From a virus (Duplodnaviria; Caudoviricetes), in IMG/VR virus record IMGVR_UViG_3300044846_001238, positions 1 to 55,311 of that record: a stretch of 55,311 bases of DNA; one strand, written 5' to 3'. Shown one piece after another: positions 21,695 to 49,335 of the stretch (the first letter of the stretch is position 1; each line of letters begins with the position of its first letter). A program made the translations under genes and the position numbers. The notes beneath the pieces are model-generated. The model had not been told where the DNA came from, ran no database searches, and saw only the letters and a program-made list of their open reading frames with translations.

Positions 21695-21901
21695 TTATAT
21701 TTTATCAGTATTGTCTTCAGGGCTATTTTGAGCAATACGAGCTCTTAGCTCATATAAAGCGGCTTTCTGACCAGAGCTGGCATACATAATCAGCTCATCT
21801 TCAGATAGGGTTTTTGGATCTAAAACAACCTCTTTAGACCCACCTTCATAATCTACGATATATCGTATTTTAGTTGGTATTTCTTTATTATTTAATATCA
21901 C
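21695..21901 (-). CDS. Small hypothetical protein, paralog family downstream of the giant genes
   Basis: AGGAG RBS. KTLSEDELIMYASSGQKAALYELRARI matches 39810..40064. Confidence 0.8.
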   Translation of the reverse strand: MILNNKEIPTKIRYIVDYEGGSKEVVLDPKTLSEDELIMYASSGQKAALYELRARIAQNSPEDNTDKI

Positions 21902-21912
21902 GATTTCTCCTA

Positions 21913-24900
21913 CTATTCCGAGTTTCTTACGTTTATTCTATTTTTTATTTCATCTACTAGGGCCTCGTCCATAAATACTCTATCGGAGTACCCTAGTTGG
22001 CTCAGTACAGGCTGTAAGACCAGCCCAGCGTATGATTCAGCAAAATACTCAGACAAGCTGGATAAAGCATAACCATCTAGCATTTCTTTAGCTCTGTTTT
22101 GCATACCAGACTTGATAAGATTTTCAAGAACTACAGAGAGTCTTTCTCCATTTTCAGAGAACGCGTTATCTAGTAAGTGGCCATACTCATGGGCAAGGAC
22201 ATAGGTGAGCTTGTCTTCTTCGCTAACTCTATCTCTTACATTTTTAAATGCCAATTTGTAAACCTGATTTATGTCTAAATCTATTTGATCTTGGTCAGGA
22301 GAGAACATGCCAGCAGCTTTTTTCATTATATAAGATAGATCTTTTAGGTGAATATCCATAGCACCGCCACCAATAAAGTACCCGCTATCTAAAATACGTT
22401 TGTGAGCGGCTGTAGCCCTTAAAATGTCCGCGTCTGAAGCATTTTTATTGGAGAAAAGACCATCCTCTAAATGACGCTTAATAGTGGTGCCAGTCTCAGC
22501 GTGCTCGTAAATGTCAGCTTTACCGTGAGCCACAATCAGTGAAACAAGAAGTTTCTGCTCTGAGTGCAGATTTTCAACTTTTTCAGACATAATAGCATTT
22601 AGATTTTGCTTAAAGCTTTCCTCTTCTCCGTAACCAAACTGAGAGAAGAAGTAGTCAGACAAGTCTCTAGTTCCCCAGTCTGAAGGTAAGTTAGGGATTG
22701 GCTTTGCTCTGTGCTCTAAGATTTTTTTAGCTGTTTTTACATCGGCTTTTGTAACATTTTTAAATAGAATTTTATCTGTGGAGCCGACTTTTTTGTCTAC
22801 AGTAGGGCCTTCAGGCGCTTTTGCAGCATCTGCCTCAGCTTTTAAGCTTTCCTGAGTAATTTTTACTAAGTTTTCATAGTATCGCTCGTTATCTTCATCC
22901 ACTAGGAAATCCTTGTAGTCGAGCTTTCTAGTTAAGAAAAGACCATTTTTAGAAGTTAGACGACTCAAAGCCACGTACAGTTGACCAGCAGCAAATGCCT
23001 TGCCATCGGTTCCATCAGCGTTTTGTAGATCTACAATAGCTCTTTCTATAGACAGACCCTGAGATTTGTGGATAGTCATTGCATACGCAGGCAGCATAGG
23101 TATTTGAGTATATTCAGCCAAAACTCCAATACCGCTCTTTTCTACAACCTTACCGGTAAGTTCGTCTATTTGTGTATAGCCTTCTGCGCCTTTAGCCGTA
23201 GACTTACCGTAACCAACCTTAACTCTATTTTTTGTACCGTCTTCTGAAACTATTTCAACAATCGGTAGACCATCGTCTTCGTCAAAATCAACTACAGTAC
23301 CTTGCGTACCATTAGTCCAGCGGTTTGTTTTTCCAGCAAAACCTGCTTCTCTTCTCAAATCTGCATTGTCATTAAGAACAAATATTACTTTTTCACCAAC
23401 GTAATAGGTAATTTTTTCAGGCACGTGTAGATTATCCTCTGTGAATGCAGACTTACCTTCTCCTGTAAATGTGCCTTCAAACTCTATCCCCAGAGCACCA
23501 GATTGCTGAAGTTTTCTAACTTCTACTTCATTAATTGATCGAGCTCTTTCGTTAGTTAGAACTAGACGAATAATTCCTCTATCCAAAATTTCTTTAGGAA
23601 CTTCAACATTTGATTCATTGAAGTACGCTAGTTCGCTCGCAGTTACTTGGGCTTTAGGAATTTTTTGAAGAGCTTCAGCATATGGTTTATCTTTTTCTTG
23701 ACGTCTGTTTTTTGTCAACATGTAGGCTAGAGGATTAGACACTCCAAGAACGTTAGATTTATACCATCTGTAGCCGCCATATTCTGACAGCATATAGTTG
23801 TGCTTATCTCTATCAAATTTAGAAGCCTTGATACGTGCTAACTTTTTATTTTCGGTCTCTTGTTGGTTTTTATCAGCAAAGCTAAGATCGTCTATTTCCT
23901 TCAAATCAGCTTCAAGTTTAGCCTGCTTATTTGGAGACCAAGCTTCCACCGGAGGCAGCTGATTGTCATCTCCAAATGCTACTACTTTTACTCCACCAAA
24001 AGGCTTTTGGTTGTTTCTAGCAACCCTAAGAGATAAATCTATAAGCTCCATAGTATTAGCGTCTACCATTGAAATTTCATCGATTGTAAGGATATCTGCG
24101 TCTCTAAAAAGTCTAAGTCTCTTTGTATCTCTTCTCAACTCTCTAATGAAAAAATCTAAGGTAGAAATTTGTTGGCCAGGATTTTCTGGATCTTCTTGAG
24201 TAAACCCCTCAGCCACAATTACGTTAGGATTTATTCGGAAAACTGAGTGAATAGTGGCACTTTTTCCCTCTCCAACATTGTGAGCAGCTACTCCTGTAGA
24301 TGCTACAGAAATAATATTTTTTCTAGGTTCTAGCTCAAATATCAATCTCCTAAGAACGGTTGACTTACCTGTACCAGCACCTCCAGTTATTAGCAGTAGA
24401 GATCCTGGAAGTAGTCCTGTATCTATAAAGCTAATTAAGTCTCTAGTTTCTTCATCGTCATCAATGATTTCAGTTTGTTCGCCGTACGGGCTACCGTCTA
24501 AGTTAGAATTAGGAGTGTAGTTTTCTAGTTTATCCTTAGTTTCTTGCTTCAGTCCCTGAGGCACATTAATTCCAGAAATTGGTTCATTGTTTTCTATACG
24601 CTTCTGAAGTCTTTTTGCCCTAAGAATTTCTAGATAGTCAGAAGCTGTTCCAGCTGTAGCCATTGCCAGTGAATTTAAAATTATGTCTCTTTCTTCATCT
24701 GAAATGTAAGAGTTGTTGTAGCCGCTAATCTCGCTCAAAATATCGATAATTTCACGTACTTCTTCTATTGAAGGTTTACTAATAGGGTTCTGGCTGTCTG
24801 GTATAGGAGTAGGCCCATTTACTTTTCTATCTACGCTAGGAACGCCATTTCGGTTTTTATTTTCCTCATACAACTGACGGAAAGACATCCTGCCCTTAAC

Positions 24901-27900
24901 TATTGGACGTTCAGCAGGAGGCGGAGTAGCCGGGGCGGCCGGAGTCGCAGGTCTAGCTGGAGTGACTGGAGTGGTGGTAGCTGGAGCAGAGTCGGTTGAT
25001 TCTGGAGCAGGACCTAGTTGCGCTCTTACATTCTTAGTTAGAACCATTTTTTTAAGTTTGCCAGAATCTTCTAATATACTTCTTCTTCTCTGGCTAAGTT
25101 TTAGTAGGCTCTTGTACATATCTTCAATACCAGAATTAGTTTGGAATTTACCATCAACAGCAGTAGACATTGAAGTATAGAATTCTGTACTCAAAAAACC
25201 TTTGCTATACAAAGAGTTTAGCAGGAGTGTTATTTTATCAACTGTACTAGGATTCGGCTTCATATCGTTTGAAAGGTAGGCTGGCTCTGAACCAATAGTT
25301 TCTCTTTGGTGTTGAATAGGCACTAAATCTGTTACAGGGACTTCGTAGAAGTCGTAGGATTTATTGCCATCCTTGTCAATATTGGTCAACACTGCAAGCT
25401 CTACTACACCAGGAGATATAAATTTACTGATACGCCCCTTTTTACCACCCTTAGTCCAAACAAAGAACATAGATTCTGCAACAATAAAGGACTGTCCTCC
25501 AGATTTAACAAAAGATTCAGTAACATCTTCTAGGTCCTCGATAGACCTTAGCTCGGCTTCATACTGTCTTAGATCGTTGTATGGATCCTCATCATTTATC
25601 GATATGCTACCGCTAGTTAGATATATTTTACCGGAGGCGTCAAAATTAAATCTTCCGTCAATAAGCTGCGTTTCTCTCACGGCGTCCATGTCTGGGTCGT
25701 CGGCTATGCCAGCAAAACGTACTACAATAACTTTTCCTGTAGGAGTTCCGTCTTTTTCTTGATACTCATCTAGCACTTGGTAAATCTGACCAGTAACACT
25801 GTCTTTAACCAGTCTACCCATAAGTTTAGAGATTTCATCCATGTCAGGAGAAAGTCCTTCAACGCCAGACTTTAGAACAACTCTATCGCGTAGAGGGTCT
25901 ACAATAGGGGCGTCTTCTAGTCTAGTAACCAAGTCATCATTGTTAAACACAAAATAAGGGTTGACGTGCATTGGCCACTCTTTAGAGCTGAATGGAACGT
26001 TTGACCGTGACCACTCCTTACCCACTACCTTTGGAGATAGGTATTCGCTTGATTCAAACTCACCAGTTATTACTCTGGTCGGGATGTGAGTCAACCCTAT
26101 ACGCTTCGCTGCTTCAACGTGGTGGTTGCCGTCGGCTACAACAGACTGTCCAGTTTTTGGATTATAGTAAACAACAACAGGATCAGAGAATCCCTTATTG
26201 GCGTTGATTTTTTCAATAAGTTCTTGAACTCTATCTTCGTTAACTTCATTACCAGCAATCGAGCTTAAAGTTTCAACTGATACAGCACCAACTACGCTAT
26301 TGTTTGGACCAAGACCTCCGCCAGTAGATGAAGAGTAGTCCTTTGATCCATTAAATACAGGGTTATTTAGGTACTCAGAGGCAACCTGAGCAATCAGGTC
26401 TTCTTCTATAGAGTCTCTGTTGTCAGGGTTAAAGTTTATTCTAGTTCGCTCTCCAAAACTTTGAGATGTCTGTCCAGCTAAAAGGGCGGGGTCTGCTATA
26501 GGGCTTACGTTAGACGGGTTTAAGCCGCTTTCAGAGTTAGTAAACGCAGGGAGCCCTAGGTGGTTTTTCGGGTTCTGATCTACTGAACGTGCCCATGCAT
26601 CTTCTTGAACAGTCTGCTCAGTACCAAAACGTAAATACTTAGTGCTATTCTGCTTAGCAAACGCCAGCATAGCTGTAGCAAGGCCTCTACGACGGTAAGC
26701 ACCGTCAACTTTAGTACCTTGGATTTCAAGTTCTCCGCGATCTAAAGTTCCACCCGCTATGTGGTTTCTAATCTTTAATTGACCAGCTGAATTCTTGATC
26801 AGGTCATTTAGAGTAGAGTCAAAGCCGACAAAGTCACCTAAAGTTTGGTTTGGCTTAGATACAAAGACATAAGCTGATTCTGAAACATCGTCAGCAGGAT
26901 TTGACGGCTCGCTAGAAACATATGCAATTTGGTAAGTATTTCCAGACGCATCCGTGTAGGAACCAACCACAAAATTGTTGTTAAACTTTGAATCACTAGA
27001 AGCGTATCTTAGTGGTACGAACGGCTTATCAGTCTGCCATCTACGGAAAGACCCTGGCTCGGTTGAGGTAACAATGCTGTCGAAAATAGTGTCTACAGTT
27101 TGACGAGGATTGTTTTTAGGGTAAGAGAAGAACTTAGCGTTGTATAGGTCATTTACAGTGGACGCGTAGGCAGCGTATCTGTAGAAGTTTTCTGATGAAG
27201 GGTTTTTAAGATACCTAGCTTTAGTTCCTTCAGCTAAGGTATAAGCCATGAATAGGACTTCATCGAAATCTGCATCTACTGGAAGTCCATAAGGATCTAA
27301 GCCATTAGAGTAGAATGCTGACCTACGACCATAAGTGTAAAGATCTGAATTAGCATCACGACTCTTCGCAGCCCTAGGGAATCTAGGAGAAGGAGATTCC
27401 ATCTTATCGACGCTAGCTAGGTCGCTTCCAGTCTTGTCGGTCTTAAGCATAGGGCTTAGTGTGGTGACTAGAGGGTCTAGGTATTGTAGGAATCTCTTGA
27501 TTTCTGGGTGGCCATCGGTTGTCTGACCATTGCGCATAAGTAGGTAGCCAGCTCTTACAAACTCAGCGAAACTCTCTTTAATGCTTTCATTACCGTACAC
27601 GCTAACAGGGTGTTTATCATCACTACTGTATAGAGGGAACTTGGACTCAAACTCTTTAAATCTCTCGTCATGCTTACCCTTGCCATTTATATCTTGACCC
27701 AAGAAAACCTTAGCTAGTCCGTGGCCCAAGTACTCGTGGATTAAAGTATTTAATATACCTTTTTCTGGAATAGGTTTTTTAAAGTTATTTCTAGGGTTTT
27801 CTTCGTGCTTAGCGGTAGTGTTTAAGACTATGTGCATTTGAGTCTTGCTTTGGTTTAGTACGTTAAAACCTTCATACTTGTCGTTTAAAAATTCACCAGC

Positions 27901-30900
27901 CATGGTAAAAGTGTTACTTTCAGCGAGAGTAACAATAACAGGCATACCACCCATGTCATTAAATCTATTTAGCTCTTTTAGCTCATTAACGATGCTTGAA
28001 AGAATTTCTGGCGTAACCGACCCATCTTTAGTTCTAATGTGGATGTTAGTTTCCGGTACTTCAAATACCCTGTATGTACGGCTATCTTTCCTTTGAGCCT
28101 CGATTATTGGATCAAGTCTGTTTCTAACTTGAGCCAGAACAAGAGCTTGCTGCTCTGAGCTAAGGTTTGCAAAGTCTTCCTCACTTACACCAGCAACAGA
28201 AGAATATCTTGCAGCCACTTTATCGTCAGATAGGTTTGGAAGATAGCCAGCAGATTCATCTGTTTCTCTTAACCAAGCGCCCCAAGTGCCGTTGTTTGCA
28301 TTAGTAGCATTTTCAAACTGCTTAAGCTCTTCTTCTGTTTTTTCAATCAAGTCTGGAATTTCTTGATTGCCAACCTTAGCAACGATTCTTCTAGGCTGTA
28401 TGCCACCTTCTCCAAAGAAAGGACCCTTTTTATCTAGTCTTAGCGGATCGATTCGTCCGTCTTCTTTGGCTTTTTCGATAAAGTTTTTAAAGTCTTGTGA
28501 CGCAGGTTTAGTATCAGTAAGAATGCTGTAGCCCAAGTCTGCCATATGCTCAGCAAAGTTTTCTGACATATTTTCTTCGGCATATAGTGTTAACTCAGAA
28601 TTTTTAAATTCTTCGATAAAGTCTTTTCTAGCTTGGCCGCCTAAAGCTACTTCGTCATACACGTGACCGTACTCGTGAGCAAGAGTAAATACAGCGTCAT
28701 CGATAGTGCCTTCAACACCTTGTCTAGGATCTTTCCCTGTTCTACCGATAGTTGATGAAGAAATACCTATGTGTGCTAGTTTATCTGTAACTACAGCGGC
28801 ACCAACAATAGTACCCTGATTCAAAAGTTCGAGTTGCTCTGGAGAGTAGATACTTACTCTAAGCTCTCTACCATCTAATGGAAGCTCTTTTTGTAGTTTC
28901 ACTGCAGCACGTAAAAGACCCGGAGCTTTTAGAGTCTCATCAGCTGAGTAAGTTAAACTAACGTTACCCTCTCTAATAGTTTTTGTTTTACCACGCTTTT
29001 TAAGACTCTGACTCCACGCGTAGTATAGGTCTCTTTCTCTACTACGAATTGCAGCTATCTTAGGGTCATTAGATAGTATGAACTCATAGCTTTCTTTAAC
29101 GCTTGGGATAAGTCCACGATCTACTAAATAGGTTCTAAATCCCCTATCTTTTTCGATGTCACTAAAACTCTTACGATTTCTTATGTGATCGTTGAAGTAC
29201 TCGTTTACTTTTTTTAGCTCTTCAAAGTAGTTCGGCTCGCCTTTTAACTTTTCTAGTTTATTAGACATGATTCTTGCTTTAGTCTTAGATACTCCATAAT
29301 GCACCATAAGGTCGTACATGTCGGTTTTAGAAGTTAGAATGTTGATTAAATCATCGGTGTCTTTTTCAGTAGTTACTGGGTTACCAGATTCTAAAATTTG
29401 AATTGGTTCGCCTGCTTCAGAAAGTTTTTGAAGCTCGTTGATGTTGTCAAGTAGCTCACGAATTCTAGCTCTTTCTTCTGGAAGATAGTCAGACAAATCA
29501 ACAGAAAGTCGGTCAGAAGGTAGCTGTTCTGGTACCACTGTAGTTGGAGGTGGCGTTGGGGTAGGGGTTACGGCCGGAGGCTGGTCTCCAGGTTCTTCGG
29601 CAGCTGGAGTAGCAGCTTGCCCTGGCTGCTCATCGGAGTCGTTTATTGCAACTTCTGAAGGTTTTTCTTCTTCGTAAACTGCAACTAGAGCATTTAGTTT
29701 TACAGTTAGGGTTTCAGAAGAGCCATCTTCATAATCTACAGAAAGTTTTACAAACCCTGCATTTTTTCTGTCTATAGATTTAATAATTCCATAAACGTCT
29801 GAGTCTTTAGCTCTGATTCTGTCGCCAATTGATAAGTCTTTAGCTCTCTTACTTACTTCAAACTCTCTAAGTCCGCCATTCTGAGGCTCCCCGTTTGGAA
29901 CGGTGTTTGAAGATCTAGCAGGTACAAACGTTGCCTTAGATTTTTCTAGAGCCTTTTTGATGTCAGGGTCTTTTCCAGAACGAGCATCGCTCAAAATACT
30001 TGCAATATACTCTTCAGCTTGACCTCTAGTCATGTTTTGGACTGGAGCAATGATTTCTTTAATTTTTTCTTCTGGAACTTCAAGTTTTCTTAGGTCAGGA
30101 GCGAAACCTTCAGGCTTGTATCCAGGGTTAGTTTTAGGGTTTAAGCTCTTTTGCTTGTCTGTAGCAGGAGTGGCAGATCCGATTGCCTTGAGATAAGAAA
30201 TTAGGTCTTTATCTGCTTGCTGCGCAATCTTATCAAAATCTAGGAACCTGTGCCCAAGAGCATTTGTAGATTCTTTTTCTGGGTTTTTGATTAGCCAATC
30301 TAGAATATTGTTTAGAATTCTAGATGCATCGTAAGCATCTGCGTCAGCTCGGTGCCAACCAGTCGGCTCTAGGCCAAAGAATTTCAAAACATCTTCTAGT
30401 TTTGCGCTAGCTCTAAAGTGAGCAGGGTTGTTAGGGTCAACATCTTCGGACTTCATTCCGTCTTTTTGACGCTTAGGTGCGTCTAACTCTACTGGCTTGC
30501 CCTTACTATCGTCTGCATTATATTTAGGTAGGGCGGTGTTGACAAAGTCTAGAGTGTCAATAGCACCAAGAACATCTAGAGATAGGCCGTTACGGTCTAA
30601 GGCTTCTTCAAGAACGCTAATGTCAAAGTTTGCATTGTGGGCAAGAAGAATGGCATCCGCGCCTATAAATTTAATAAACTCTTCTAGAACTTCTTTTTCG
30701 CTCTTTTGCTGGTCAAGCCACTCTTTGTCAATCTTTACAAACTCGCCGGTAGGGTTGCCGTTTTCGTCTAATACTGGACGCTCTAGATTCTTTGCTGACC
30801 ACTCACTCATCACCACGCCATCTTCTTGACGAATAAACTGATTAAAGAATATTTGCTCCCCGTTAGCGCCTTTCTTAGATGCACCAAGCTGGACAATTCT

Positions 30901-39471: not shown

Positions 39472-39506
39472 AGATAAGTCTTTCTTTGGTGGTAAGGCCT
39501 ATAGCA

Positions 39507-39512
39507 ATTTTA
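39507..39512 (-). promoter_or_regulatory. Putative -10 element (TAAAAT) upstream of the 5852-aa gene
   Basis: TAAAATTG, the same octamer as upstream of the capsid leader, about 35 nt before the GTG. Confidence 0.4.
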
Positions 39513-39514
39513 GT

Positions 39515-39817: not shown

Positions 39818-40064
39818 TGCTGTTGTCTTCCTTCTTTTTCTTTTTCTTTTGAGATTTCTTCCACTTAGCATACCTCTCGACGTCTTTATCAGACATCTCT
39901 TCTAAAGGTTTGTACGGGTTAAATCCTATACGAGATTTTAGCTCATCAATAGCTTCTTCTGCGCCCATAGATGCGTAGACGTCTAGTTGCTCTTCAGACA
40001 GGGTTTTGACATCAATATCAACTACCTTGCTAGTGCCGTCAGCTAGAGTGAAGTGAACCTTCAT
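39810..40064 (-). CDS. Small hypothetical protein (84 aa), paralog family
   Basis: AAGGA RBS. KTLSEEQLDVYASMGAEEAIDELKSRI; Lys-rich tail. Confidence 0.8.
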   Translation of the reverse strand: MKVHFTLADGTSKVVDIDVKTLSEEQLDVYASMGAEEAIDELKSRIGFNPYKPLEEMSDKDVERYAKWKKSQKKKKKKEDNSNE

Positions 40065-40089
40065 TTTCGTCCTTACTATTGATTAATCT

Positions 40090-40098
40090 AGTATAGCA
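40090..40098 (-). promoter_or_regulatory. Extended -10 promoter TGCTATACT for the two small genes
   Basis: TGnTAnnnT consensus in the 43-bp gap after the 3075-aa gene. Confidence 0.55.
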
Positions 40099-40107
40099 AA
40101 AAATAGA

Positions 40108-43100
40108 CTACTCAATACCAAGTCGGTTGTCAAGTTCAGCTAAAGCTAGCCTAATCTTAGGGGTAGGATCGGGGTCTAAAGCTCCAGAAGAACCTAGGCT
40201 ACTCATGCCTAAGTAGGCAAATAGTCTGTTTCTATCTTCAGGAGATAGCTCGGTTAGTCCTGTTCCAGACTCTAGCATAGCTAAGATTTGTAGAAGACCT
40301 AATCTGCTAGTTTCGTCCCTTTGACGCTTAGCGTTAGGGTTAGCTTGCAAATCAGCAATTTCTCTATTAGTCATCTCGATTTCGCCGTTAACATCAGCAT
40401 CAGTAGCAAACCTAAACGGAACGATTCTCTGCATGTAAGGAGTTTTTAAAGACAGCTTAAGTGACTTTATGTAAGAAAGCTTTCTTTCCATAAGATCTCT
40501 ATTGAACTTAGAATAGTAGTCTTCTCCAGATGGGCTGACTTTTTTGTCTACAACAGGACCATCGGCGTCCTGTTCATTAGACTTATTAAAGTCTTCGGCA
40601 GTGAGACCCATCTTTAATCCCATTTCTATTAGCTCTTCTTCTGTGGCGTCAGGATTTTCGTCTCTTAGAATAAGCATAGATGCATTTTTTAGAGCTTCTG
40701 GCGTTATGTAATTAGCTAGTCCGCCAAAGTCTATTCTACGCTTGGCTCTGGTTCCGGAAACGTACCAGCCGTTAACCTCCTGCCTATTTATGGCCTTGTT
40801 AATCTTTTCTTGCTTTTCTTTTGCAAGACGTTCTTCTTGTTGTTCGTCGGTTTCACCTTCTAGCTTTTCTGGCTTAGCTTTAGCAACACCCTCTTCTTCT
40901 GGTTCGTATGTAGGATCCCAGTCTTTCCAAAGTCTAACGTTCTCTTGCTCTAGACCCTTAGCTGTGTGTGAAGTAAGGAACTGAACTGCAGCGTCTGATC
41001 CGCTAAGGGCGTTGTATACCGCAAGTATTTCATTCTTTAGGGATACCTCATCGGTTGAGTCAATAGCTTTAATCCACTCAGCCGCACGGTACATTTTACC
41101 AGTTTCCTGTCTGTCTGGAACCATTTCGGTGCTTCTTTCAAAACCTAGGCTTTCTAGAAGAGGAGCGTTTTCAAACAAAGGAGACTTTTTGCCTTCTCTT
41201 CTGTAAGATCCAGGTTTCTTAGCTCCACCCGGCAGGATTACCAAATTACCGTCTCTAACAGAATAAGCAATTTCATTACCAAAGAATCCGTTTAGACCTA
41301 CTTCTTCTGGCATCTTATAGTCATTGTTTACAATCCTATAATCATTTATTCTTCTAGATAGTTCGATAAGAGCAGGTCCAGGAAGTAACCTTCTACCTTT
41401 AGTTCCTTTTTCTGGGTCGGCCGGTCCTCTTAGTTTACTCATCAAACTAAAAATAACCCTAGTGTCTTCGTCAGCAGTGCCAGCTTTAATTGCTGCTTCG
41501 ATGCTTCCCCATGTAGCTCCAATCAAATCCGCTGGCCTTACAACAGGTGGTTTTGCATTTTCAATTCTAGACCTAGTAGCTTCAACTTCACCCGCTAATT
41601 TCATATAATCTTCAATCTGCGTAAGAGTTAGACTTCTGTCTTCTCTCTTAGATAGAGATTCAATTGCATTTTTAAGCTCTAACTTAGCTTCTCTAATTTC
41701 ACTAGCTGTAGTCATAGGAGTGTAGATTGGAGCTCTTGGATTTGTTCTGTCAACTCTAACTAAAATAGGCTCTTTAGTTGTTGGGTCTATACCTCTATAG
41801 GCAACTTTAAGTTCTTCATATGCGGCTTTTAGTTTAGGAGCTTCTACAAGAAGAGCAGCTGCAGCTTCATTGAGTTTTCGTAACTTAGCGTTGTTTAGGT
41901 CGTCATAGTATAGATATTTCATAGTGTCTACGTGAGCAGACACTCTTTGCTTAAGTCCTGCAGTGATAGCAAAATACTTACCGTCATAAAAACTTTCGGT
42001 TTCTAGATCAAGAGTCGCGTCTAAGATACCAGCGTTAGTTCTAGTAATTAAGAACATGTCATCTAGCAGCATGGTGTTAGGCTCAAAAATCTCTCCAGAC
42101 TCGTTAACCGCGCTTTGAAGGAATATTAGTGAACCTAGTGCTTTTAGTATGTCATTAGCTGGCCCTAAAATTTCTGGTGAAGACCTTCTGTTGACTGTCA
42201 ATGGGAACTCAGCGTCAGCTACTAACTCATTAAGAGCGTTAGCGGTACCACTAAATCCAAAAATACTTTGATTCGTATCTCCTACAGTAATAAATTGGAT
42301 ACCGTTACCTTTTTGACGCTTCATAATGTCAATAAACACAGGGTTTAGGTCCTGAGCCTCATCCAACATAATAACGTTAGGTATTTTAGGTAGACCTAGT
42401 TCACTGGTGACGCCGCCTCTCGGGCCAACTGTAGCTGAAGATAGGTCTATATTACCTAGAGACCAGTTCTTTACCATGTGTTGCTCTCTAACAACTAACT
42501 GACGTTTGTTTGGGTCGTGCGGAGATAGAATGTCTTGCCAAAAATCTTGTGCAATTAGTGCAAGTTGCTCTATAAATACTCCTTCATTTCTAGAAGCATC
42601 TTCTGGAATGTCAACTATATATTCCTCACTGTAACTGAAATCATCGCCTTCAATTTCTACAGGAGTAGTTCCCTCGTTAAAAATCTCGACTATTCTTCCG
42701 TCGACATCTTTTCTTACATAGCGCTTTCCGATAAATACTCCGTCTTCGCCAACAAGCTCGCCTACTTTAAGAGAGAGTGGGTCAAGATCATTTATGTCCT
42801 TATCCTTGCCGACAGTTAAGAACTTACGCGCTCCTGGCGACCAGCTTGGGTTAAGAGAAAGCATATTTAAAAAGTCTTTAAAATGCTTTCTAGAAATTTC
42901 TGTATCTGCAGAGTTAACCCAGTTTTCTAGACCATCATATGCGAGTCTTGCTAAATCTACACCGCGCAGGTAAACACCGTATTGCTCTTGTATAGCGTCG
43001 CCATACTGATCTTCGAGGAAGAAGCTTTCCGCAATGTCATACGCTGAGTAGCGTATGGTCATACCTTCACTATCGCCAAGCTGTTTAGGAATAGCATCGT

Positions 43101-46100
43101 ATTTTCTTCTCAGTTCTTGGTTTGGCTTAACTCCCATAGCAACAGAGTGTAGAGTTCTAGCTGCAATGTTTTTAACGCCATCTAGTCTAGCTTCAGCTTC
43201 TTCTTGGTTTTCCTTACCGAAAACCATGTACAGTAGGTTCTTGTCTGGGTTCATCGCCGCATAGACATATGCTAGAACCTCTAGCATGGTAGTTTTACCT
43301 GTACCCGCAAGCGCGTTTACAATTAAATCCGGTCTATTGTCAGATAAAGCTGCCTTAAGAATATTTTCAAGCTCACTGGTTAGTTGAACTTTAGGCATAT
43401 ACCTATTAACTAGAGATAAATTAAGAACAGTTTTGTCATATTTTTCAGTTACTAGTTTAGGAGTTTTTTTCTTAGCATCTACAATAGGGCCTGCAGAGCT
43501 AGAAGCACTCTGCTCAGCGGTAGGTAGAGCCTCAGGAGTGTCTTTGTTAGCCTTTACTATGTTTTGCTGTTCTCTAGAGTTAACAAGCATTGAAATCAGG
43601 TTGTTTAGGGCAACACGAGGATATGAGTCACTTTTAATGCTGCTTTTTACGGCATTAGCAAAATCCCTAGACAAAGCCTTAGAAGCCAACAACTCGTCTA
43701 CCAAATCTAAAGCGGTGTCTTTGTTTTCTTTTTCAGAAACCGGCACTCCCGCATACGGAAGAACGGAAATTTCATTTACTGGAACCTTGTAAATCTTTTC
43801 GCCATTTTTAATAATGCCTACTCCGATACCATTAAACCCAGAGAAAGTTCCTGCCTCGTTGTCGCCTAGAGAAGAGTGAGTTACAGTCATTCCCAAATCT
43901 AAAGCCATACCGTTTTTAGAGACAATAGCTTCGGTAGCGTTGTATAGGATTGAAGGCTTAACTTTTTGAAGAGTAGTTCTACCAGAAGATAGATACTCAG
44001 CCGCAGGGAACTCAACTAGAACTAAACCTTCTCCAGTAGATCCGTATGATCTACCAATCTGATTTGTTAAAACGTTTAGAACGTAGCTACCTGCCCCGAG
44101 CTCAGAAACTACTCTGCTGGCTGGCATTGTTGAAGTTCTGTCTTCAGGTCTTTCAACCACTCTTCTGCTAGCTATTTCTTCTAGTGAACTGAGAATTTGA
44201 TTAGACGCTTCAGCAGAGTTTGAGTCTGCAGATTGTCTATTTTTATCCAAGATGTTGTTGACAAACATAGCATAGTCAAATAGTTTTCTACCAAGCAGGT
44301 AGTCAGCAACTTGATTCTTATATTCTTCGCTTGCTGTTGCGTACTCAGAGTCTGACCAGCCATTCTTAGAACCCTCAAAGTCAAAAGTTCTGCCCTTATC
44401 GGATTTTCCTTCAGCAGCAAAATCAAGTATTTTACCTAGGATTTCCAAAGTAGATACAACGTCAGCATCCGCTTCGTGACGTCCGTTGTTAGATAGACCG
44501 AAGTATGTCACCAAAGCTTCTAGGCTGTCTGACGGTACTTGGACACCATATTTACCTTGGCTAGGGAAATCGCTCAACCTAAATGGTGCGTTAGGGGTGC
44601 TTGCTGACCATCTAGGCATGACGTACTTAGATAGACCGAAAGTGTCAATAAAGCCACCAAACTTGTACTGAGGCAGTCCTGACTCTAGTAGGGTTCTGTT
44701 TAGTACTTCCATATCAAACATAAATCCATTGTGACCAACTAGCACGGCACCCTCAGGAACCATGTCTAAAAAGTCTTGCATAGCATTTAGTTTGCTCTTT
44801 TGATCCTGCAAAAACTCTTTAGTTACTTTTTTGCCAGTGCCGTCACCAATAGTGTTCATAGTGAACTGGCTAAGCTGGGATTCTGGATTTATGTATGAGT
44901 TGTATTGCTCTTGAATTGCAAAGTTGAATGCTTTTGCGATAGCAAGCTGAATAGGGTCATTTTTGATTTCAGGGGCGTCAACGTCGAAAATACCTGTTGT
45001 TTCAAAGTCAAAAACGTATAGAACTAGCTTAGAGATAAAATCTCTAACCTGCTCCCAATCAGACATGTTTCTAAGTGGCTCCAGTGCTTCACCTGCGAAA
45101 GCCGGTGGAGTAAATCTTTTCATGTTTGGCTTAGGAGAGTTGATGTCAATTTTTCTATCAACAATCGGACTGTCTTCCATGTCCTGGCCAGCAGTATATG
45201 CCCCGACCAAGTCAGAGACTACAATAGAAGCCGCGTCTTCTAGGTTACGTAGAGTTTTTTCTTTAGGGTTTCTTATTTTACCGTAGCTGTAACTAGCTGT
45301 TGGTATGTTAGCTAAGGCAGTACCAATAAGTTTTACTCTGCGATCAAACTCAGCTGGAGACTGTTGCATAATATTTTTACGTCTACCATCTAGAGCACCT
45401 CTAAGTGATGAAAGTTCCTCAATCGCTTGTTGAACAAAGCGCTTACCATCAGAGTTTAGTTCCCTATTAGATTTCTTTAACATCTCTCTTAGCTGCTTTA
45501 CAACAGCATCGATGTCTATTCTAGTAGCTTTAGCAGCCTCTTGTCTGGCTAACTTAGCTCTTAGTGCAGCCTGCTGCTCTTCATTAGTTCCTAGGTTGTC
45601 ATCTAAGTTTTCCGCAGCACTAGATAGTGCCTCAATAATAGGTGTCCACCAAGGATCTAGTCCGTGTCTTTCAACCAACGTCGGTAGGAACTTGTTACTG
45701 GATTTATTTCTAAGTTTTTGAAGATCTTCTGCAGGGAAGTCGGCTCCAACGTTAGCATCTAGCGGAGCATAGGAGTCAGGTACAATAAAGTTACTCGGTC
45801 TTTTTAAATCAGTAAGATCTAATCCATTACGCATCGCGTACTCAAAAACTAATAGATCGAAATCTTCTTCGTATCTTCTAGTTACATCTATGAGTTTTGC
45901 AAACCACCTTTTATCTTTTGTTTTGTAGTTTTGCAGTAGGAAGTCGGAAAGAGCTTTTGGAAATGCTCCCTTAGCTAAGCTACGCTCAACGGATGCTAAC
46001 TGCTTAGCTGAAGGTCCGCCTTCTTTTTCTGGAATAGCCTGAGTAAATACTTTTGGAACAAACTTTTCTAGTTTTTCTTGTCCCCAAAGTGCATTAAAGT

Positions 46101-49100
46101 CATACCACTCATTAATTGGCATTTTTCGGTGGTTTTTCATAAAATATCTAAGTGCGGCTGGACTTATATCATAGTTATCAATAACTTGCTTAGCCTTTAC
46201 CATTATTGATTTAGTAGGTGCTTTAGTACCGACTAAGTCTGTACCAAGAGGGGCATATTCAGACTCAGGAATGTCATCTAGCCCTCTTCCTTCAGCAATT
46301 TCAATAGCGGTAATGTCAATAGTCTCGGTAATGTCAGTAGTCTCAGCACCGTCGACAGCTTTTGGCTTTGCTCTGTATAGCTTATACTGAGCAATCTTTT
46401 CATTCATCTTGCTCTGAGAATATTTGTGCATTCCTGCTAAGTCGTTTAGACTTTCTTGTATTTTGTCTTCAGGGACGTTTCGGTCTCTAATTAGAGTTTT
46501 TAAAAACTTTCTTTGATCCGGGCTTCCTGTTACACCTTCTTCAGCAGTACGCTGGATAGCAATTGCTGACGCACGATTAAGTGTGTCTTGCACTTCCTTA
46601 AAACCATAGTTGTCTAGGTTATTAGCTATTTCATATAGTCTGTCAACAAGGAATGCGTCGTCAACAATAGCGTAAAAAGCTAGAAATTTTAATCTGTTCT
46701 TAATTTTATCAGAAAGAGGGTTGGAAACATCCTTAGGGTCTTTCTTACCTTCTGTTATTTTAGGGTCTGGACCGTCTCCGGTAAGAATAGGGGTTTCGGT
46801 TGCAGGTGTCTCTGAAACACTGGCCTTACCACTCTTTAGTTCTGCGTCTCGTCTTAGATTTTCTTCAGTCGGCAGAACGCCTGAACCGCGATATACAGAA
46901 ACAGGCTCGTCTTTCTTGACTCGTATAAACCCACCTGCTACACCCTCGCTATCACCCTTGAAGTAGATACCTAGGCTGTCTGGTTTATCAGGGTTTTCTT
47001 CTATTCTTAAGATTTCCTGAGGGACTCCGTTTTCACCAACTATAGCGTCAGAGACGATTACTTCACTACCTAGAACCTTTTTTACGTCTTTAAAAGTTAG
47101 TCCGCGTTTTACGTTACTTCCTCGGTAGTTGTTAAGGACAGCATTGATTTGCGCTAAAAATGAACTTCCTTCATATGTAGGAGCAAACCTAAACTGATCT
47201 ATTTTAGCTTGTAAGTTTGCGTATTCCGCTGGCGGTACCTTATAGTTCGATAGATTCGCAATTGCTCTACGAATTTTTTCTCTCTGCTGAGGGTAAATTA
47301 GAGATCCCTTTGGGTTCACATCTGCAAGACCACCGTGATATAGGTTGTAGTACAGAGTTGCTAAATCTTTTACAGTAAACTCTTGAGGATAGTCATGCAT
47401 CTCATCCCATAGATCGACTGCCTCGGGCAAGCCTTTTCTTCTTAGTAAGTCTTTATCAAGTGACATGTAAAATCCAGAGTTTTGTATTTCAGATAGGATT
47501 ACACCCTCTCCTACACCCTCTACACCAAGCTTAGCCTCGTATCCTCCAGCATTGAGAACATTTTTAGTTTGGGCGGCCTTTTCAATCTTTGCAGCGATAT
47601 CTTCGTTCAAAGGCTCCAAAAACTTTTTGCGTTCAGGTAGCAGGGAATCCTTGTCTACAGGTGCTTTATCAGCAACATCGCCGGCTGCCATTCTGTCAAC
47701 GATAGGTAGGTCTTCATCTTCTTCGTAGCTACGAGTAAATCTTTCAACACTATCCCAACTAAAGACTGAAGCAATGTAGTGTCCAGTTCTGTTGGAGTAG
47801 ATGTTCATTGTTCCAGGAGTAATTAGCGGGGCATCTCCAACATATCTTTCACCAGTTTCAATATCCAGTGTGTCAACAGATTCTGTTCCAACAGATAGGT
47901 CACCATACTCGGCTACATATAGGCCGTCGACTGAGAGGAACGTGTTAGGCTGCTCTGTCTGTCTCCAAGTTCTAGGTAGAGATTGGATAGGGTTAAATCC
48001 AGGCAGTTCTGTGTCGTCTTCTGTTTCGTCTTCTTCTAGCACTTCTTCTTGCACTTCAGGAAGTTCGGCAACTACCTGTGGTTGAGCAACTTCTTCAATT
48101 GGCTCGTTTTCAGCGTCTGGATAGTTAGTGTCTTCTGCAGTAGTCATCTGCTGAACTCCGGACCAGTCCTGAGCGTATCCAACTACTTCTTCTTGACCAC
48201 GCTTTGTAGAAATAAGCTCATAAACAGGCTTATCTCCCTCTAGAGTGTCAGTACCCTTAGTGTTTAGTACTGTTGCTCCAAATTTATCCCGAGCCTCGGC
48301 TACGCGGTTTTCTAGAGCTTCAGTTACTCCGTTATACATAGCCAAACGGTAACCGTCTCCAGTTGCATAGTTTTGTGCTGGCTTTACGTTAGTGCTTAGC
48401 AGAGCTGCTCCAGCGGCTGATTCGGTTGTGTACCAGCTTGTAGGGAGGTCCTTACGAATCATGTCTGCAATGTCAATAAAGTTTACGCCTAGTCCAGGCC
48501 CTACTGGAGAAGACTTTTCGATAGCTTCGGCTGGAAGAATGGCCTTGAAGAACTTAGTCATGTCTGACGGAACGGTATAGATGCCAGGAGTGATTCCAGG
48601 AACATCGGTGATTTCTAAATCGATACCCTTAGGGTCGTTCTCAGGAATACCAGCAATCTTACCAACCACAGAGATAATGTTTCCCATAGGCATTTTGACG
48701 TATAGACGAGCTCCGCCACCCATCTCGGCGAACTGACCTTCTTCGTCACGACGCTGCCCTTCGGCACGCATCTTTCTGTGCCAGAAGCTGTTCTTACCGG
48801 CGTACGGATCACCAAAAGCAAGAATTGGTCTAATACGTAGGTCGCTAGGGATTTGGTCTCTTACAGAGCTTAGACGGATCATGTTGTAGTGGAAATCTAG
48901 GCTGTTAGGGTTGCTACCATAAACAGCAGCAACAATAGCTCTGGCGTTCTCGTCTGTGATTCTAGGGTCTGAGGCAATCCATTCAGCCCGTAGCTGACGT
49001 AGCTCTAGTGAGGAGAACTCGTGGGCTGCAGTTGAGTTAGGGTGGTTTACAGGAAGTAGGTCTGTGTGCTTAGCCACTGTTTCTGAGATATTTCCCTCAG

Positions 49101-49335
49101 AGGCAAAAGTAACAAAGTTGGTAACTTCACGAATAACATTAAAGTGCTGAACGTCAGTAGCAAGTGCAGCACTGGCAGTTAGAGCGCGCTCTGCAACGCT
49201 AAAGACAGCGTCGTCTGAAACTTTACGAGCTTCTGGGACATCTACGTTCCTAGTCTCAATGATGTCGATAATAGAGTCTCTTAGACCTATTCCGCCATCG
49301 TAGTTTTCATCGAACTGATCAATTAAGTTACTCAA
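40108..49335 (-). CDS. Giant 3075-aa polyvalent protein: DEDDh exonuclease + UvrD/Rep-like SF1 helicase
   Basis: TTG start 4 nt after the upstream stop. FDFETTG..GHNGFMFD..HEADAD (~44460-45012). ALAGTGKTT (43288-43314), RTLHS, DEAQD (42349-42363), VGDTNQSIFGF, RRS, TRTN, TSHTAKGLE, YVSGTRAK (40741-40764). Confidence 0.9.
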   Translation of the reverse strand: MSNLIDQFDENYDGGIGLRDSIIDIIETRNVDVPEARKVSDDAVFSVAERALTASAALATDVQHFNVIREVTNFVTFASEGNISETVAKHTDLLPVNHPNSTAAHEFSSLELRQLRAEWIASDPRITDENARAIVAAVYGSNPNSLDFHYNMIRLSSVRDQIPSDLRIRPILAFGDPYAGKNSFWHRKMRAEGQRRDEEGQFAEMGGGARLYVKMPMGNIISVVGKIAGIPENDPKGIDLEITDVPGITPGIYTVPSDMTKFFKAILPAEAIEKSSPVGPGLGVNFIDIADMIRKDLPTSWYTTESAAGAALLSTNVKPAQNYATGDGYRLAMYNGVTEALENRVAEARDKFGATVLNTKGTDTLEGDKPVYELISTKRGQEEVVGYAQDWSGVQQMTTAEDTNYPDAENEPIEEVAQPQVVAELPEVQEEVLEEDETEDDTELPGFNPIQSLPRTWRQTEQPNTFLSVDGLYVAEYGDLSVGTESVDTLDIETGERYVGDAPLITPGTMNIYSNRTGHYIASVFSWDSVERFTRSYEEDEDLPIVDRMAAGDVADKAPVDKDSLLPERKKFLEPLNEDIAAKIEKAAQTKNVLNAGGYEAKLGVEGVGEGVILSEIQNSGFYMSLDKDLLRRKGLPEAVDLWDEMHDYPQEFTVKDLATLYYNLYHGGLADVNPKGSLIYPQQREKIRRAIANLSNYKVPPAEYANLQAKIDQFRFAPTYEGSSFLAQINAVLNNYRGSNVKRGLTFKDVKKVLGSEVIVSDAIVGENGVPQEILRIEENPDKPDSLGIYFKGDSEGVAGGFIRVKKDEPVSVYRGSGVLPTEENLRRDAELKSGKASVSETPATETPILTGDGPDPKITEGKKDPKDVSNPLSDKIKNRLKFLAFYAIVDDAFLVDRLYEIANNLDNYGFKEVQDTLNRASAIAIQRTAEEGVTGSPDQRKFLKTLIRDRNVPEDKIQESLNDLAGMHKYSQSKMNEKIAQYKLYRAKPKAVDGAETTDITETIDITAIEIAEGRGLDDIPESEYAPLGTDLVGTKAPTKSIMVKAKQVIDNYDISPAALRYFMKNHRKMPINEWYDFNALWGQEKLEKFVPKVFTQAIPEKEGGPSAKQLASVERSLAKGAFPKALSDFLLQNYKTKDKRWFAKLIDVTRRYEEDFDLLVFEYAMRNGLDLTDLKRPSNFIVPDSYAPLDANVGADFPAEDLQKLRNKSSNKFLPTLVERHGLDPWWTPIIEALSSAAENLDDNLGTNEEQQAALRAKLARQEAAKATRIDIDAVVKQLREMLKKSNRELNSDGKRFVQQAIEELSSLRGALDGRRKNIMQQSPAEFDRRVKLIGTALANIPTASYSYGKIRNPKEKTLRNLEDAASIVVSDLVGAYTAGQDMEDSPIVDRKIDINSPKPNMKRFTPPAFAGEALEPLRNMSDWEQVRDFISKLVLYVFDFETTGIFDVDAPEIKNDPIQLAIAKAFNFAIQEQYNSYINPESQLSQFTMNTIGDGTGKKVTKEFLQDQKSKLNAMQDFLDMVPEGAVLVGHNGFMFDMEVLNRTLLESGLPQYKFGGFIDTFGLSKYVMPRWSASTPNAPFRLSDFPSQGKYGVQVPSDSLEALVTYFGLSNNGRHEADADVVSTLEILGKILDFAAEGKSDKGRTFDFEGSKNGWSDSEYATASEEYKNQVADYLLGRKLFDYAMFVNNILDKNRQSADSNSAEASNQILSSLEEIASRRVVERPEDRTSTMPASRVVSELGAGSYVLNVLTNQIGRSYGSTGEGLVLVEFPAAEYLSSGRTTLQKVKPSILYNATEAIVSKNGMALDLGMTVTHSSLGDNEAGTFSGFNGIGVGIIKNGEKIYKVPVNEISVLPYAGVPVSEKENKDTALDLVDELLASKALSRDFANAVKSSIKSDSYPRVALNNLISMLVNSREQQNIVKANKDTPEALPTAEQSASSSAGPIVDAKKKTPKLVTEKYDKTVLNLSLVNRYMPKVQLTSELENILKAALSDNRPDLIVNALAGTGKTTMLEVLAYVYAAMNPDKNLLYMVFGKENQEEAEARLDGVKNIAARTLHSVAMGVKPNQELRRKYDAIPKQLGDSEGMTIRYSAYDIAESFFLEDQYGDAIQEQYGVYLRGVDLARLAYDGLENWVNSADTEISRKHFKDFLNMLSLNPSWSPGARKFLTVGKDKDINDLDPLSLKVGELVGEDGVFIGKRYVRKDVDGRIVEIFNEGTTPVEIEGDDFSYSEEYIVDIPEDASRNEGVFIEQLALIAQDFWQDILSPHDPNKRQLVVREQHMVKNWSLGNIDLSSATVGPRGGVTSELGLPKIPNVIMLDEAQDLNPVFIDIMKRQKGNGIQFITVGDTNQSIFGFSGTANALNELVADAEFPLTVNRRSSPEILGPANDILKALGSLIFLQSAVNESGEIFEPNTMLLDDMFLITRTNAGILDATLDLETESFYDGKYFAITAGLKQRVSAHVDTMKYLYYDDLNNAKLRKLNEAAAALLVEAPKLKAAYEELKVAYRGIDPTTKEPILVRVDRTNPRAPIYTPMTTASEIREAKLELKNAIESLSKREDRSLTLTQIEDYMKLAGEVEATRSRIENAKPPVVRPADLIGATWGSIEAAIKAGTADEDTRVIFSLMSKLRGPADPEKGTKGRRLLPGPALIELSRRINDYRIVNNDYKMPEEVGLNGFFGNEIAYSVRDGNLVILPGGAKKPGSYRREGKKSPLFENAPLLESLGFERSTEMVPDRQETGKMYRAAEWIKAIDSTDEVSLKNEILAVYNALSGSDAAVQFLTSHTAKGLEQENVRLWKDWDPTYEPEEEGVAKAKPEKLEGETDEQQEERLAKEKQEKINKAINRQEVNGWYVSGTRAKRRIDFGGLANYITPEALKNASMLILRDENPDATEEELIEMGLKMGLTAEDFNKSNEQDADGPVVDKKVSPSGEDYYSKFNRDLMERKLSYIKSLKLSLKTPYMQRIVPFRFATDADVNGEIEMTNREIADLQANPNAKRQRDETSRLGLLQILAMLESGTGLTELSPEDRNRLFAYLGMSSLGSSGALDPDPTPKIRLALAELDNRLGIE

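Follow-up and report, generated by a model that had tools for sequence, protein, structure and literature searches.

Precedents for virion-borne enzymes

Large enzymes that are loaded into the phage head and ejected so as to act before gene expression are exemplified by P1 DarB and T4 Alt, some proteins of this kind being processed and some carrying metallopeptidase (MPTase) domains. To our knowledge, P1 DarB and DdrB, T4 Alt and the N4 virion RNA polymerase serve transcription or anti-restriction, and none of them combines a primase, two helicases and proofreading-type exonucleases. The subject of this work is a 55,311-bp virus record of IMG/VR (IMGVR_UViG_3300044846_001238; the whole stretch is referred to as the window), which covers ~32% of the estimated genome and encodes two giant proteins, A and B, that hold such enzyme domains. 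As the original prediction had described, the two open reading frames (ORFs) lie between the portal/Dps genes and a protease-scaffold gene; both are intact and lack internal stops. No sequence relationship was found between them and P1 DarB or DdrB, T4 Alt or the N4 virion RNA polymerase.

40108-49335, minus strand: giant A, 3075 amino acids (aa), no internal stop; N-terminal module, unassigned region, DEDDh exonuclease, unassigned region, UvrD-type superfamily 1A (SF1A) helicase, C-terminal tail
21913-39471, minus strand: giant B, 5852 aa, no internal stop

The polyvalent proteins of phages are described as being encoded among late virion genes (Iyer 2017, PMC5512222), a source in which the N4 virion RNA polymerase and P1 DdrB appear as packaged and injected phage enzymes. 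As they are characterised there, polyvalent proteins share with giants A and B the presence of unrelated enzyme domains in one polypeptide, zincin-type peptidases (zincin-like domains in B), helicase modules, modules of the ADP-ribosyltransferase (ART), GNAT and ParB-like types (putative in B), location among late virion genes and predicted delivery with the DNA. The giants differ from that description in having no MuF domain but an N-terminal module (N-module) of no matched fold, in carrying DnaG/Toprim and UvrD domains (and ArdC-N in relatives), and in forming a tandem pair with small paralogs in between and with an interdomain motif that co-varies by lineage. Unrelated activities are joined in one polypeptide in both giants (exonuclease and helicase in A; primase, exonuclease, helicase, zincins and a ParB-like domain in B), and both genes have the late location. 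As regards the MPTase used to recognise polyvalent proteins, B contains three zincin-like domains with HExxH or HExxxH, and the family PF18818 (MPTase-PolyVal) itself is present in 19 of 74 A-type relatives and was, like ArdC-N, not detected by Pfam in the giants of the window.

In its treatment of conjugation, the same survey assigns the set formed by DnaG/Toprim primase, ArdC-N and UvrD to conjugative elements only ("never by phages"; PMC5512222), which justifies the unfamiliarity that the original prediction had expressed about this mix of domains. The conjugative primases TraC1 of RP4 and Sog of ColIb/R64, together with ArdC, as described there, have in common with our family a cassette of ArdC-N, MPTase and Toprim primase found in relatives such as P0012 and, if the giants are delivered, they would likewise accompany the DNA and prime it on arrival. 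The difference is that here the genes belong to a tailed phage with portal, capsid and tail genes, and that the giants of the window lack ArdC-N and PF18818 at the Pfam level. No relaxase or type IV secretion genes were seen among the ORFs of the window (~32% of the genome) or around the giants in the related loci whose flanks were inspected.

Another precedent is gp27 of Microbacterium phage Burro, a virion-associated protein of cluster EK, whose 13-kb genes encode more than 4400 aa next to the portal and for which a virion band of ~250 kDa suggests processing (PMC7302621). Going by the description in that paper, both cases are giant genes beside the portal of an actinobacteriophage, but the EK phages are podoviruses and their proteins have few recognisable domains, while many enzyme domains can be assigned in A and B. 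Burro gp27 is taken here as a precedent of kind, not as a homolog. True relatives among deposited phages are the slot proteins of DSL-LC01 (3289 aa) and Microbacterium phage Pumpernickel (gp82, 2235 aa), which occupy the same place between portal and protease and have a homologous N-module (DSL-LC01 25-390 with A 16-384, 30% identity, E 2e-32; gp82 8-144 with A 169-301). They differ from A and B in having no Pfam-detectable DnaG, Pif1, UvrD or exonuclease and no P[IVT]VD motif, and are annotated as hypothetical. A search of the literature found no paper on these proteins or on a virion-borne phage DnaG primase, with the limit that supplements, including the FTP files of Iyer, might list exceptions.

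A conserved slot with variable enzyme loads

All long ORFs of the window are on the minus strand, and their order of transcription (5' to 3') is: a helix-turn-helix (HTH)/terminase_5 protein, a DUF1360 membrane protein, the portal, a Dps/ferritin fusion, giant A, the small proteins s84 and s118, giant B, the small protein s68, the protease-scaffold fusion, the major capsid protein (MCP) and tail genes. Genes within this co-directional block are separated by gaps of 4 to 55 nt or overlap slightly.

When 1.84 billion protein representatives were searched with a profile of the N-module, 516 clusters matched with E<=1e-3, of which 368 also passed 1e-10 and 233 passed 1e-30. The module stands at the N-terminus in 150 of the 150 listed matches, starting within the first 45 residues, and 123 of these 150 proteins are at least 1900 aa long. 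Among deposited phages, three of 50,697 records contain it, corresponding to two phages (DSL-LC01, and Pumpernickel deposited twice). Related loci in IMG/VR were retrieved by an alignment-based search with the N-module alone, a single-protein search having given one relative only. In 77 of 77 loci, portal or Dps genes are the immediate upstream neighbours of the N-module gene and share its strand. A Dps-like gene is found upstream in 76 loci and a portal gene in 74, the exceptions being truncated by contig ends, and a protease homolog lies downstream in all 23 loci that extend that far; no locus presents another context. The synteny for which the original prediction proposed a search of viral metagenomes does recur there, with homologs of the giants linked to head genes. 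Independent intact giants are represented by 74 plus 15 clusters, 77 IMG/VR loci and 41 metagenome loci, and a search for shorter homologs gave three proteins, on contigs of 3.8-13 kb, some of them possibly cut by the contig end.

The enzyme load behind the N-module is variable. A census with residues 1-560 of A, the common N-terminal part, gathered 74 clusters of 1.7-5.4 thousand residues, in which RNase_T is present in 55, ArdcN with MPTase-PolyVal in 19, DnaG-type domains in 16, GNAT in five, ART-type domains in two and NUDIX in two, while nine have no Pfam domain. On rescanning, the relative P0012 has the architecture RNase_T-UvrD-ArdcN-MPTase-PolyVal-DNAG_N-Toprim-DnaB_bind. A second giant accompanies the first in the window and in L005/L006, and five further lineages likewise have tandem giants, the second one measuring 4305-4716 aa. 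The six other B-type giants contain PIF1 in all six cases, RNase_T in five, ADPrib_exo_Tox in two and DnaG in one; since DnaG occurs in only one of these six and the sole Toprim match of the relative G001 is inside its giant 1, modules move between the two giants. In a clade with a single giant (L036, L047, L074), three of the four giants checked have no HExxH, and 4-mers of the type PEGF/PEGY/PDGF recur, clustered at aa ~300-880.

The N-terminal module and a shared peptide

48100-49335, minus strand: N-terminal module of A, aa 1-412, candidate head-loading module
48712-48819, minus strand: peptide AFGDPYAGKN...QRRDxxGQFAEMGGG of A, aa 173-208, invariant in 37 sequences, predicted disordered with a predicted local distance difference test score (pLDDT) <50
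38737-39471, minus strand: N-terminal module of B, aa 1-245, with the peptide RDxxG..W.EMG; similar to Pumpernickel gp82 aa 3-88

Invariant columns make up 24% of the N-module in A and 50% in B, compared with 1-4% across most of A, and in both giants it is the most conserved region; the DEDDh domains are also among the most conserved parts of the giants. An AlphaFold2 (AF2) model of the A module built from 37 sequences (pLDDT 76.7) combines helices and a beta-rich portion with a disordered segment (173-206). The invariant peptide, with an ERSxxA lead, is also found at the starts of B-type giants, in the 466-aa and 3289-aa slot proteins of DSL-LC01 and in Pumpernickel gp82. Moreover, it occurs twice in the protease-scaffold protein (aa ~355-375 and ~1380-1400) of the window and of ten relatives (DSL-LC01, Pumpernickel and eight further loci). 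The N-terminal motifs that the original prediction saw as shared with head proteins are therefore real, in the form of a peptide common to both giants and the protease-scaffold protein. A complex prediction for the portal with A residues 160-300 scored 0.00, which is neither for nor against binding.

Domain composition of giant A

Giant A has 74 homologous clusters, and its start, MSNLID..., is kept in homologs. Two enzyme domains were assigned in it:

44437-45015, minus strand: DEDDh 3'-5' exonuclease, aa 1441-1633, Pfam RNase_T 1.2e-12
40726-43410, minus strand: UvrD/Rep-type helicase, ~aa 1976-2870, Pfam UvrD-helicase 8e-12 and AAA_19 (~aa 1990-2365), phrog_1967 DNA helicase 8.6e-39

The RNase_T match reaches 49.1 bits (Pfam cut-off 24) and is accompanied by NCBIfam matches to PolC/DnaQ-type exonucleases; the catalytic residues D1443, E1445, D1541, H1620 and D1625 are invariant in 25 homologs. 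The UvrD-helicase match (45.8 bits, cut-off 23) covers only profile positions 214-259, AAA_19 scores 32.3 bits, UvrD_C matches weakly and NCBIfam equivalog scores are far under their cut-offs, while the Walker A GxGKT and the DE box of the helicase are invariant in homologs. Both giants are strongly acidic and neither has a transmembrane (TM)-like segment. Ten unassigned segments of the two proteins scanned with Pfam at E<=5 gave noise only, apart from weak GNAT and zincin hints.

Domain composition of giant B

Giant B has 15 homologous clusters of 4220-6002 aa. Its domains follow each other in the order N-module, two ART-like domains, DnaG Zn-ribbon, insert, DnaG core with Toprim, DEDDh exonuclease, zincin 1, zincin 2, GNAT-like region, ParB-like domain, unassigned region, Pif1 helicase and zincin 3:

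37561-38184, minus strand: ART-like copy 1, aa 430-637; hidden Markov model (HMM) built from both copies; invariant YRN, GYxSxD, DE
35482-36144, minus strand: ART-like copy 2, aa 1110-1330; AF2 pLDDT 58.5, core 70-90
34915-35202, minus strand: DnaG CHC2-type Zn-ribbon, aa 1424-1519, Pfam Zn_ribbon_DnaG 2.4e-24
32395-33093, minus strand: DnaG catalytic core and Toprim, aa 2127-2359, Pfam DNAG_N 1.5e-23 (2127-2256) and Toprim_2 2e-15 (2266-2359)
30202-30957, minus strand: DEDDh exonuclease, aa ~2839-3090, Pfam RNase_T 1.1e-9 (39.5 bits, cut-off 24)
28402-28854, minus strand: zincin 1 (HEYGH ... ENFAEH), profile against PDB matching the lethal-factor catalytic domain, E 1.4e-6
27472-27924, minus strand: zincin 2 (HEYLGH), hhalign to zincin 1 97.9%, E 6e-13
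26572-26994, minus strand: GNAT-like region (RRRGLATAML), weak matches to Pfam Acetyltransf_1 (E 0.11) and a PDB profile (E 0.99)
26047-26304, minus strand: ParB/Srx-like domain (DGNHH), phrog_26754 ParB-like nuclease 2.5e-5
22828-24444, minus strand: Pif1/Dda/RecD-type SF1B helicase, aa ~5010-5548, Pfam PIF1 1.2e-22 (from aa 5023), phrog_325 Dda-like 6e-64
21916-22374, minus strand: zincin 3 (HEYGH ... EYFAES), hhalign to zincin 1 96.3%, E 1.8e-9; weak Pfam DUF2268/M48

The Zn-ribbon, DNAG_N and Toprim parts of the primase score 85.4, 83.7 and 57.4 bits against Pfam cut-offs of 24.9, 26 and 22.1, and the acidic Toprim residues E2271, D2319 and D2321 are invariant in 15 B-type homologs. The best PHROG is the phage DNA primase family phrog_6444 (6.2e-73), and the score against the cellular dnaG equivalog TIGR01391 of NCBIfam is 179.5 bits, under the cut-off of 283.6; by these profile scores, the primase is a member of the DnaG family and not a cellular orthologue. 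The Zn-ribbon lies ~600 aa away from the DnaG core (33094-35202, aa 1424-2126), and in the alignment none of 14 B-type homologs has a counterpart of the ribbon. By eye, it reads CPFH...CFVDG, with an Asp apparently at what we take to be the position of the last Cys of the CHC2 pattern.

The exonucleases of A and B are paralogs (blastp 29% over 237 aa, E 1e-16), and the B region has 38% invariant columns, including DxE, D, H and D. The Pif1-type helicase scores 81 bits with PIF1 (cut-off 25.9), with invariant GxGKS/T and DE. The profile of zincin 1 was built from seven lineages. In zincin 2, H3912, E3913 and H3917 are invariant; the spacing HExxxH (HEYLGH) is invariant in 15 close homologs and gives way to HEYGH in more distant lineages, so that this domain may, as its sequence suggests, be inactivated or altered in the clade of the window. 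The GNAT-like region has an invariant RRxGxA-like stretch, and the homolog P0080 is annotated with PF00583. The ParB-like assignment is moderately supported: NCBIfam SerK matches at 4.7e-6, far under its cut-off, PDB profiles match SbnI at 5e-3 and ParB at 0.047, and the motif reads DGNHH, invariant, versus the DGxHR type.

The duplicated domain near the start of B has a probable ART fold according to its predicted structure. Structural comparison of copy 2 with VIA gave a best Z of 5.4 (root-mean-square deviation 3.0, 84 residues aligned) with the Rhs ART toxin TreX, and of 48,161 chains 91 reached Z>=2, the top 50 being nearly all ADP-ribosyltransferase-fold entries by title. Residues R46, S64 and E110 of the domain are invariant in seven sequences and form a candidate R-S-E triad. 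Copy 2 gave nothing in Foldseek at E<=1e-3 (best E 0.45), no usable match in the ESM Atlas and no match in Pfam. In L024, an ART-like domain is encoded by a separate smaller gene (6874-7497, plus strand) between the Dps-like gene and the A-type giant.

Where the original prediction counted at least 12 enzyme or enzyme-like domains, ~9 are thus solid on Pfam or profile evidence and three (the GNAT-like and the two ART-like domains) are tentative. Similarly, the mix of DnaG, Pif1, UvrD and two DEDDh nucleases was recovered above Pfam cut-offs, and its designation as cellular-type does not extend to DnaG, which falls below the cellular equivalog cut-off.

A lineage-specific interdomain motif

The motif P[IVT]VD occurs seven times, in the giants only, versus 0.79 occurrences expected in the 17,933 aa of the window. 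Refinement from homolog alignments to [P/S]-h-V-D-[RKAP]-[KML] gave nine sites, four in A and five in B, in agreement with the repeated linker motif noted in the original prediction:

47689-47706, minus strand: A544, PIVDRM
45151-45168, minus strand: A1390, PIVDRK, 51 aa before the exonuclease
43471-43488, minus strand: A1950, PIVDAK, just before the helicase
40540-40557, minus strand: A2927, PVVDKK, after the helicase
35218-35235, minus strand: B1413, PIVDAK, 11 aa before the Zn-ribbon
27400-27417, minus strand: B4019, ASVDKM, between zincin 2 and the GNAT-like region
25891-25908, minus strand: B4522, PIVDPL, after the ParB-like domain
24823-24840, minus strand: B4878, PSVDRK, before Pif1
22789-22806, minus strand: B5556, PTVDKK, between Pif1 and zincin 3

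All sites fall between assigned domains, at Pfam borders. Their position is conserved, but their wording is specific to each lineage and changes together in both giants, other wordings being SAVD[RK]M, VVD[RK]R, VIDE[KM], [VI]EE[MS], [EI]QEM, [ILV]D[KR]M(AP) and IIKKM. Counts of the respective lineage motif are as follows:

Window: giant 1, 4; giant 2, 5; protease protein, 0; MCP, 0
G001: giant 1, 6; giant 2, 3; protease protein, 0; MCP, 0
G005: giant 1, 7; giant 2, 9; protease protein, 0; MCP, 0
G004: giant 1, 4; giant 2, 3; protease protein, 0; MCP, 0

Concerted change at many sites in two proteins argues for one reader of the motif, and the co-variation by lineage fits proteolytic processing. 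Because the MCP and the scaffold protein are without the motif, the lethal-factor-like zincins of the giants themselves are better candidates for this role than the prohead protease and, on the sequence pattern, more probably read it. The motif could also be a docking site of a non-proteolytic nature.

Relation to the replication genes

The complete 129-kb genome of DSL-LC01 encodes PolA, a helicase, a RecA-like protein, RuvC and a "primase/helicase" with a Prim-Pol N-terminus (Pfam 5.1e-34), and DnaG/Toprim_2 has no match in this complete record. Homologs of the Prim-Pol protein (59-63% identity, frames of 875-891 aa) are found in G001, G003 and G006. G001 thus contains both a giant with DnaG and a separate Prim-Pol, its sole Toprim match being the one inside giant 1, and Toprim_2 has no match in the relatives G006-G008 (88-94% complete). 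Since the family has a separate Prim-Pol/helicase gene, the DNA enzymes of the giants are a variable supplement to an ordinary replication module, and the giants, judged from this gene content, are not the main replisome.

Small paralogs associated with the giants

39810-40064, minus strand: s84, after A; blastp to s68 E 7.8e-9
39515-39871, minus strand: s118, after s84; joined to s84 by jackhmmer at 7.6e-25
21695-21901, minus strand: s68, after B

Each giant is followed by members of one small family, as had been proposed: s68 and s84 are 51% identical over 41 aa at the blastp E value above, and jackhmmer adds s118, whose true start is probably the internal MSEKV.... With jackhmmer, the family comprises 26 ORFs in the loci, all directly after giants, in most cases with two copies in a row that separate giant 1 from giant 2. 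Such pairs are present in L005, L009, L010, L013, L015, L017 and L018; a paralog after giant 2 is found only in the window and L005. Iterated HMM searches found none in the single-giant lineages, and no family matched s84, s118 or s68. These proteins are probably helpers, as a chaperone or adaptor, which is a guess.

Neighbouring head and tail genes

The flanking genes were identified with PHROG and Pfam:

51577-53373, minus strand: portal, 598 aa, phrog_776 5e-104
49340-51559, minus strand: Dps/ferritin fusion, 739 aa, Pfam Ferritin 3.8e-14 and DUF5824
17020-21639, minus strand: protease-scaffold fusion, 1539 aa, phrog_18402 head maturation protease 8.7e-57
14866-16884, minus strand: MCP (major head protein), phrog_777 8.9e-82

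By MCP, the nearest deposited relatives are Actinomycetia phage DSL-LC01 (69%) and ~190-kb phages of Microbacterium and Arthrobacter. At its N-terminus the MCP is extended by an acidic stretch of ~240 aa in which Glu, Met and Pro are frequent, and more distant relatives align only from ~aa 235. The Dps fusion (49340-51559) contains the Dps/ferritin domain at aa 16-154, Cys-rich stretches including PCWDGYK...VPNCV, and DUF5824; in DSL-LC01, the counterpart of residues 188-297 is part of the protease ORF and the rest of the fusion is spread over separate genes, a redistribution which indicates that modules shuffle among slot proteins. The 1539-aa protease-scaffold fusion (counterpart in L002 at 14960-19879) corresponds to three consecutive ORFs in DSL-LC01 (603, 851 and 183 aa), and its counterpart in Pumpernickel is a single ORF of 1534 aa. 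The DUF1360 membrane protein, which has TM-like segments (53409-53807, minus strand), separates the terminase-region genes from the portal and keeps this place in most related loci. Finally, a repeated domain is common to the major tail protein (440 aa, 12346-13668), a 621-aa protein (3403-5268) and an 1122-aa tail protein (3-3368), all on the minus strand (blastp E down to 4e-8), and is probably an Ig-like decoration.

Possible functions and rival explanations

We hold with moderate confidence that A and B are a processed, capsid-loaded cargo of the phage polyvalent type. The combined pattern is that of a head-loaded cargo: the N-module, whose docking-type peptide recurs in the scaffold-protease, stays constant while the enzyme load varies and is shuffled, cassettes that are hallmarks of transferred proteins occur, and the place between portal and protease is fixed. 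Both giants are products of the late head operon and, in such a scheme, the N-module would load them into the prohead. The motif would provide cleavage sites, cut more probably by the giants' own zincins, and the pieces would exit with the DNA and work in the cell ahead of phage gene expression. There, the DnaG primase, the Pif1 and UvrD helicases, the two DEDDh exonucleases and the ParB-like domain would act on the entering or host DNA, and the ART-like, GNAT-like and zincin domains on host proteins. The original prediction of a capsid-loaded, processed cargo thus gains from the slot (77 of 77 loci), the architecture of constant module and variable load, the shared peptide, the co-varying motif, the polyvalent domains of relatives and the separate Prim-Pol. 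Its comparison with MuF-type cargo is less well supported: the slot among head genes holds another conserved N-module that is not detectably MuF-like. The absence of the motif from MCP and protease in four of four lineages speaks against the prohead protease as the processor.

Packaging, cleavage and injection are inferred from the comparative evidence, and several observations weigh against a packaged cargo. MuF gave no Pfam match at E<=5 on residues 1-700 of A or of B, and the N-module has no similarity to any known head-targeting domain in Pfam, Foldseek or VIA: Foldseek returned no match from PDB or BFVD at E<=1e-3, and the best wide VIA match (Z 5.5) concerns small helical or SH3-like pieces. 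The zero counts in MCP and protease-scaffold protein also leave the motif with no link to head maturation as such, and the motif of G003, with 2+0 sites, is hard to define. A candidate co-varying cleavage site in the MCP, E[ST]VDAM, was rejected, as it is identical in six of six MCPs whatever the lineage motif; in these six the longer form E[ST]VDAMT is kept at aa 42. The two giants together amount to ~1 MDa (8927 aa), which would have to pass a long non-contractile tail. No DnaG is reported for phage polyvalent proteins in the survey as presented in PMC5512222, so that the giants could be something else. Furthermore, primase, helicases and proofreading-type exonucleases equally suit a late function in replication or repair, and the window, at ~32% of the genome, leaves its own replication genes outside view.

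In a rather unlikely alternative, the giants are unpackaged polyproteins for late replication, repair or DNA maturation and the N-module tethers them to the portal or procapsid as a factory at the packaging site, for instance for recombination-dependent replication, concatemer processing or the clearing of DNA for packaging. Their domain content is of the replication and repair type, DEDDh is among their most conserved parts, they share the direction of the portal gene in a tightly spaced block, and that survey (PMC5512222) has no DnaG primases among phage polyvalent proteins. Against it, the family has its own Prim-Pol/helicase, PolA, RecA-like protein and RuvC elsewhere, DnaG is dispensable and mobile between giants, the ART, GNAT, NUDIX and ArdC-N/MPTase loads of homologs have no role in DNA maturation, and the giants have a constant N-module with a variable load. 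It is improbable that the giants are instead mainly structural proteins of an internal core or ejectosome, forming an inner body or a trans-envelope conduit of the T7 type with accessory or partly inactive enzyme modules. Their great size and long unassigned stretches (A 548-1393; B 1530-2100, 2360-2830, 3091-3539, 4526-4881), the HExxxH of zincin 2 in this clade and the presence of an ART-fold region of the cyanophage pre-ejectosome chain 9k3a_B in the VIA list (Z 3.5) would suit such proteins, but the giants have no TM-like segment, no catalytic residue of the exonucleases, Toprim, the Walker motifs or two HExxH sites varies among 15-25 homologs, and module shuffling is typical of effectors, not of structural cores. 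As for a misassembled or decayed sequence that reads open by chance, the record is a single metagenomic contig that is ~32% complete, but intact homologous giants on many independent contigs, domain-level conservation and conserved starts make this explanation negligible.

If the giants are a packaged cargo, a more specific and tentative proposal, which we rate as rather doubtful, is an entry resembling conjugation, where the head carries a primase in the style of TraC1 or Sog (joined in relatives by an ArdC-N/MPTase cassette), Pif1 and UvrD helicases and two proofreading-type exonucleases for strand synthesis, end or gap repair or recombination on the incoming genome before gene expression. 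Were this true, the genome would arrive in a form that requires priming, for instance partly single-stranded or gapped, and the zincins of the giants would cut polyproteins at a lineage-specific code.

Implications for the phage family

The concept of polyvalent proteins is known; what is new, as far as domain assignment goes, is that a kind of primase so far reported, in the survey cited above, only for proteins transferred by conjugative plasmids is now found in giants of a phage slot. The family also offers three testable handles: its N-module is a new candidate for head loading whose putative docking peptide is invariant, the interdomain code differs by lineage and could determine the specificity of a zincin or its substrate, and the giants would be a natural means of packing very large heterologous cargo into capsids. 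If the giants are packaged, a large and almost wholly uncultured phage clade of actinobacterial type (516 protein clusters) would bring a primase, a pair of helicases and a pair of exonucleases into the cell along with its DNA. This would overturn the published rule that reserves transferred primases and ArdC-type modules for conjugative elements and has phages inject only tools for transcription and anti-defence. Even if they are not packaged, portal-linked tandem enzyme arrays of three to six thousand residues represent unexplored phage biology.

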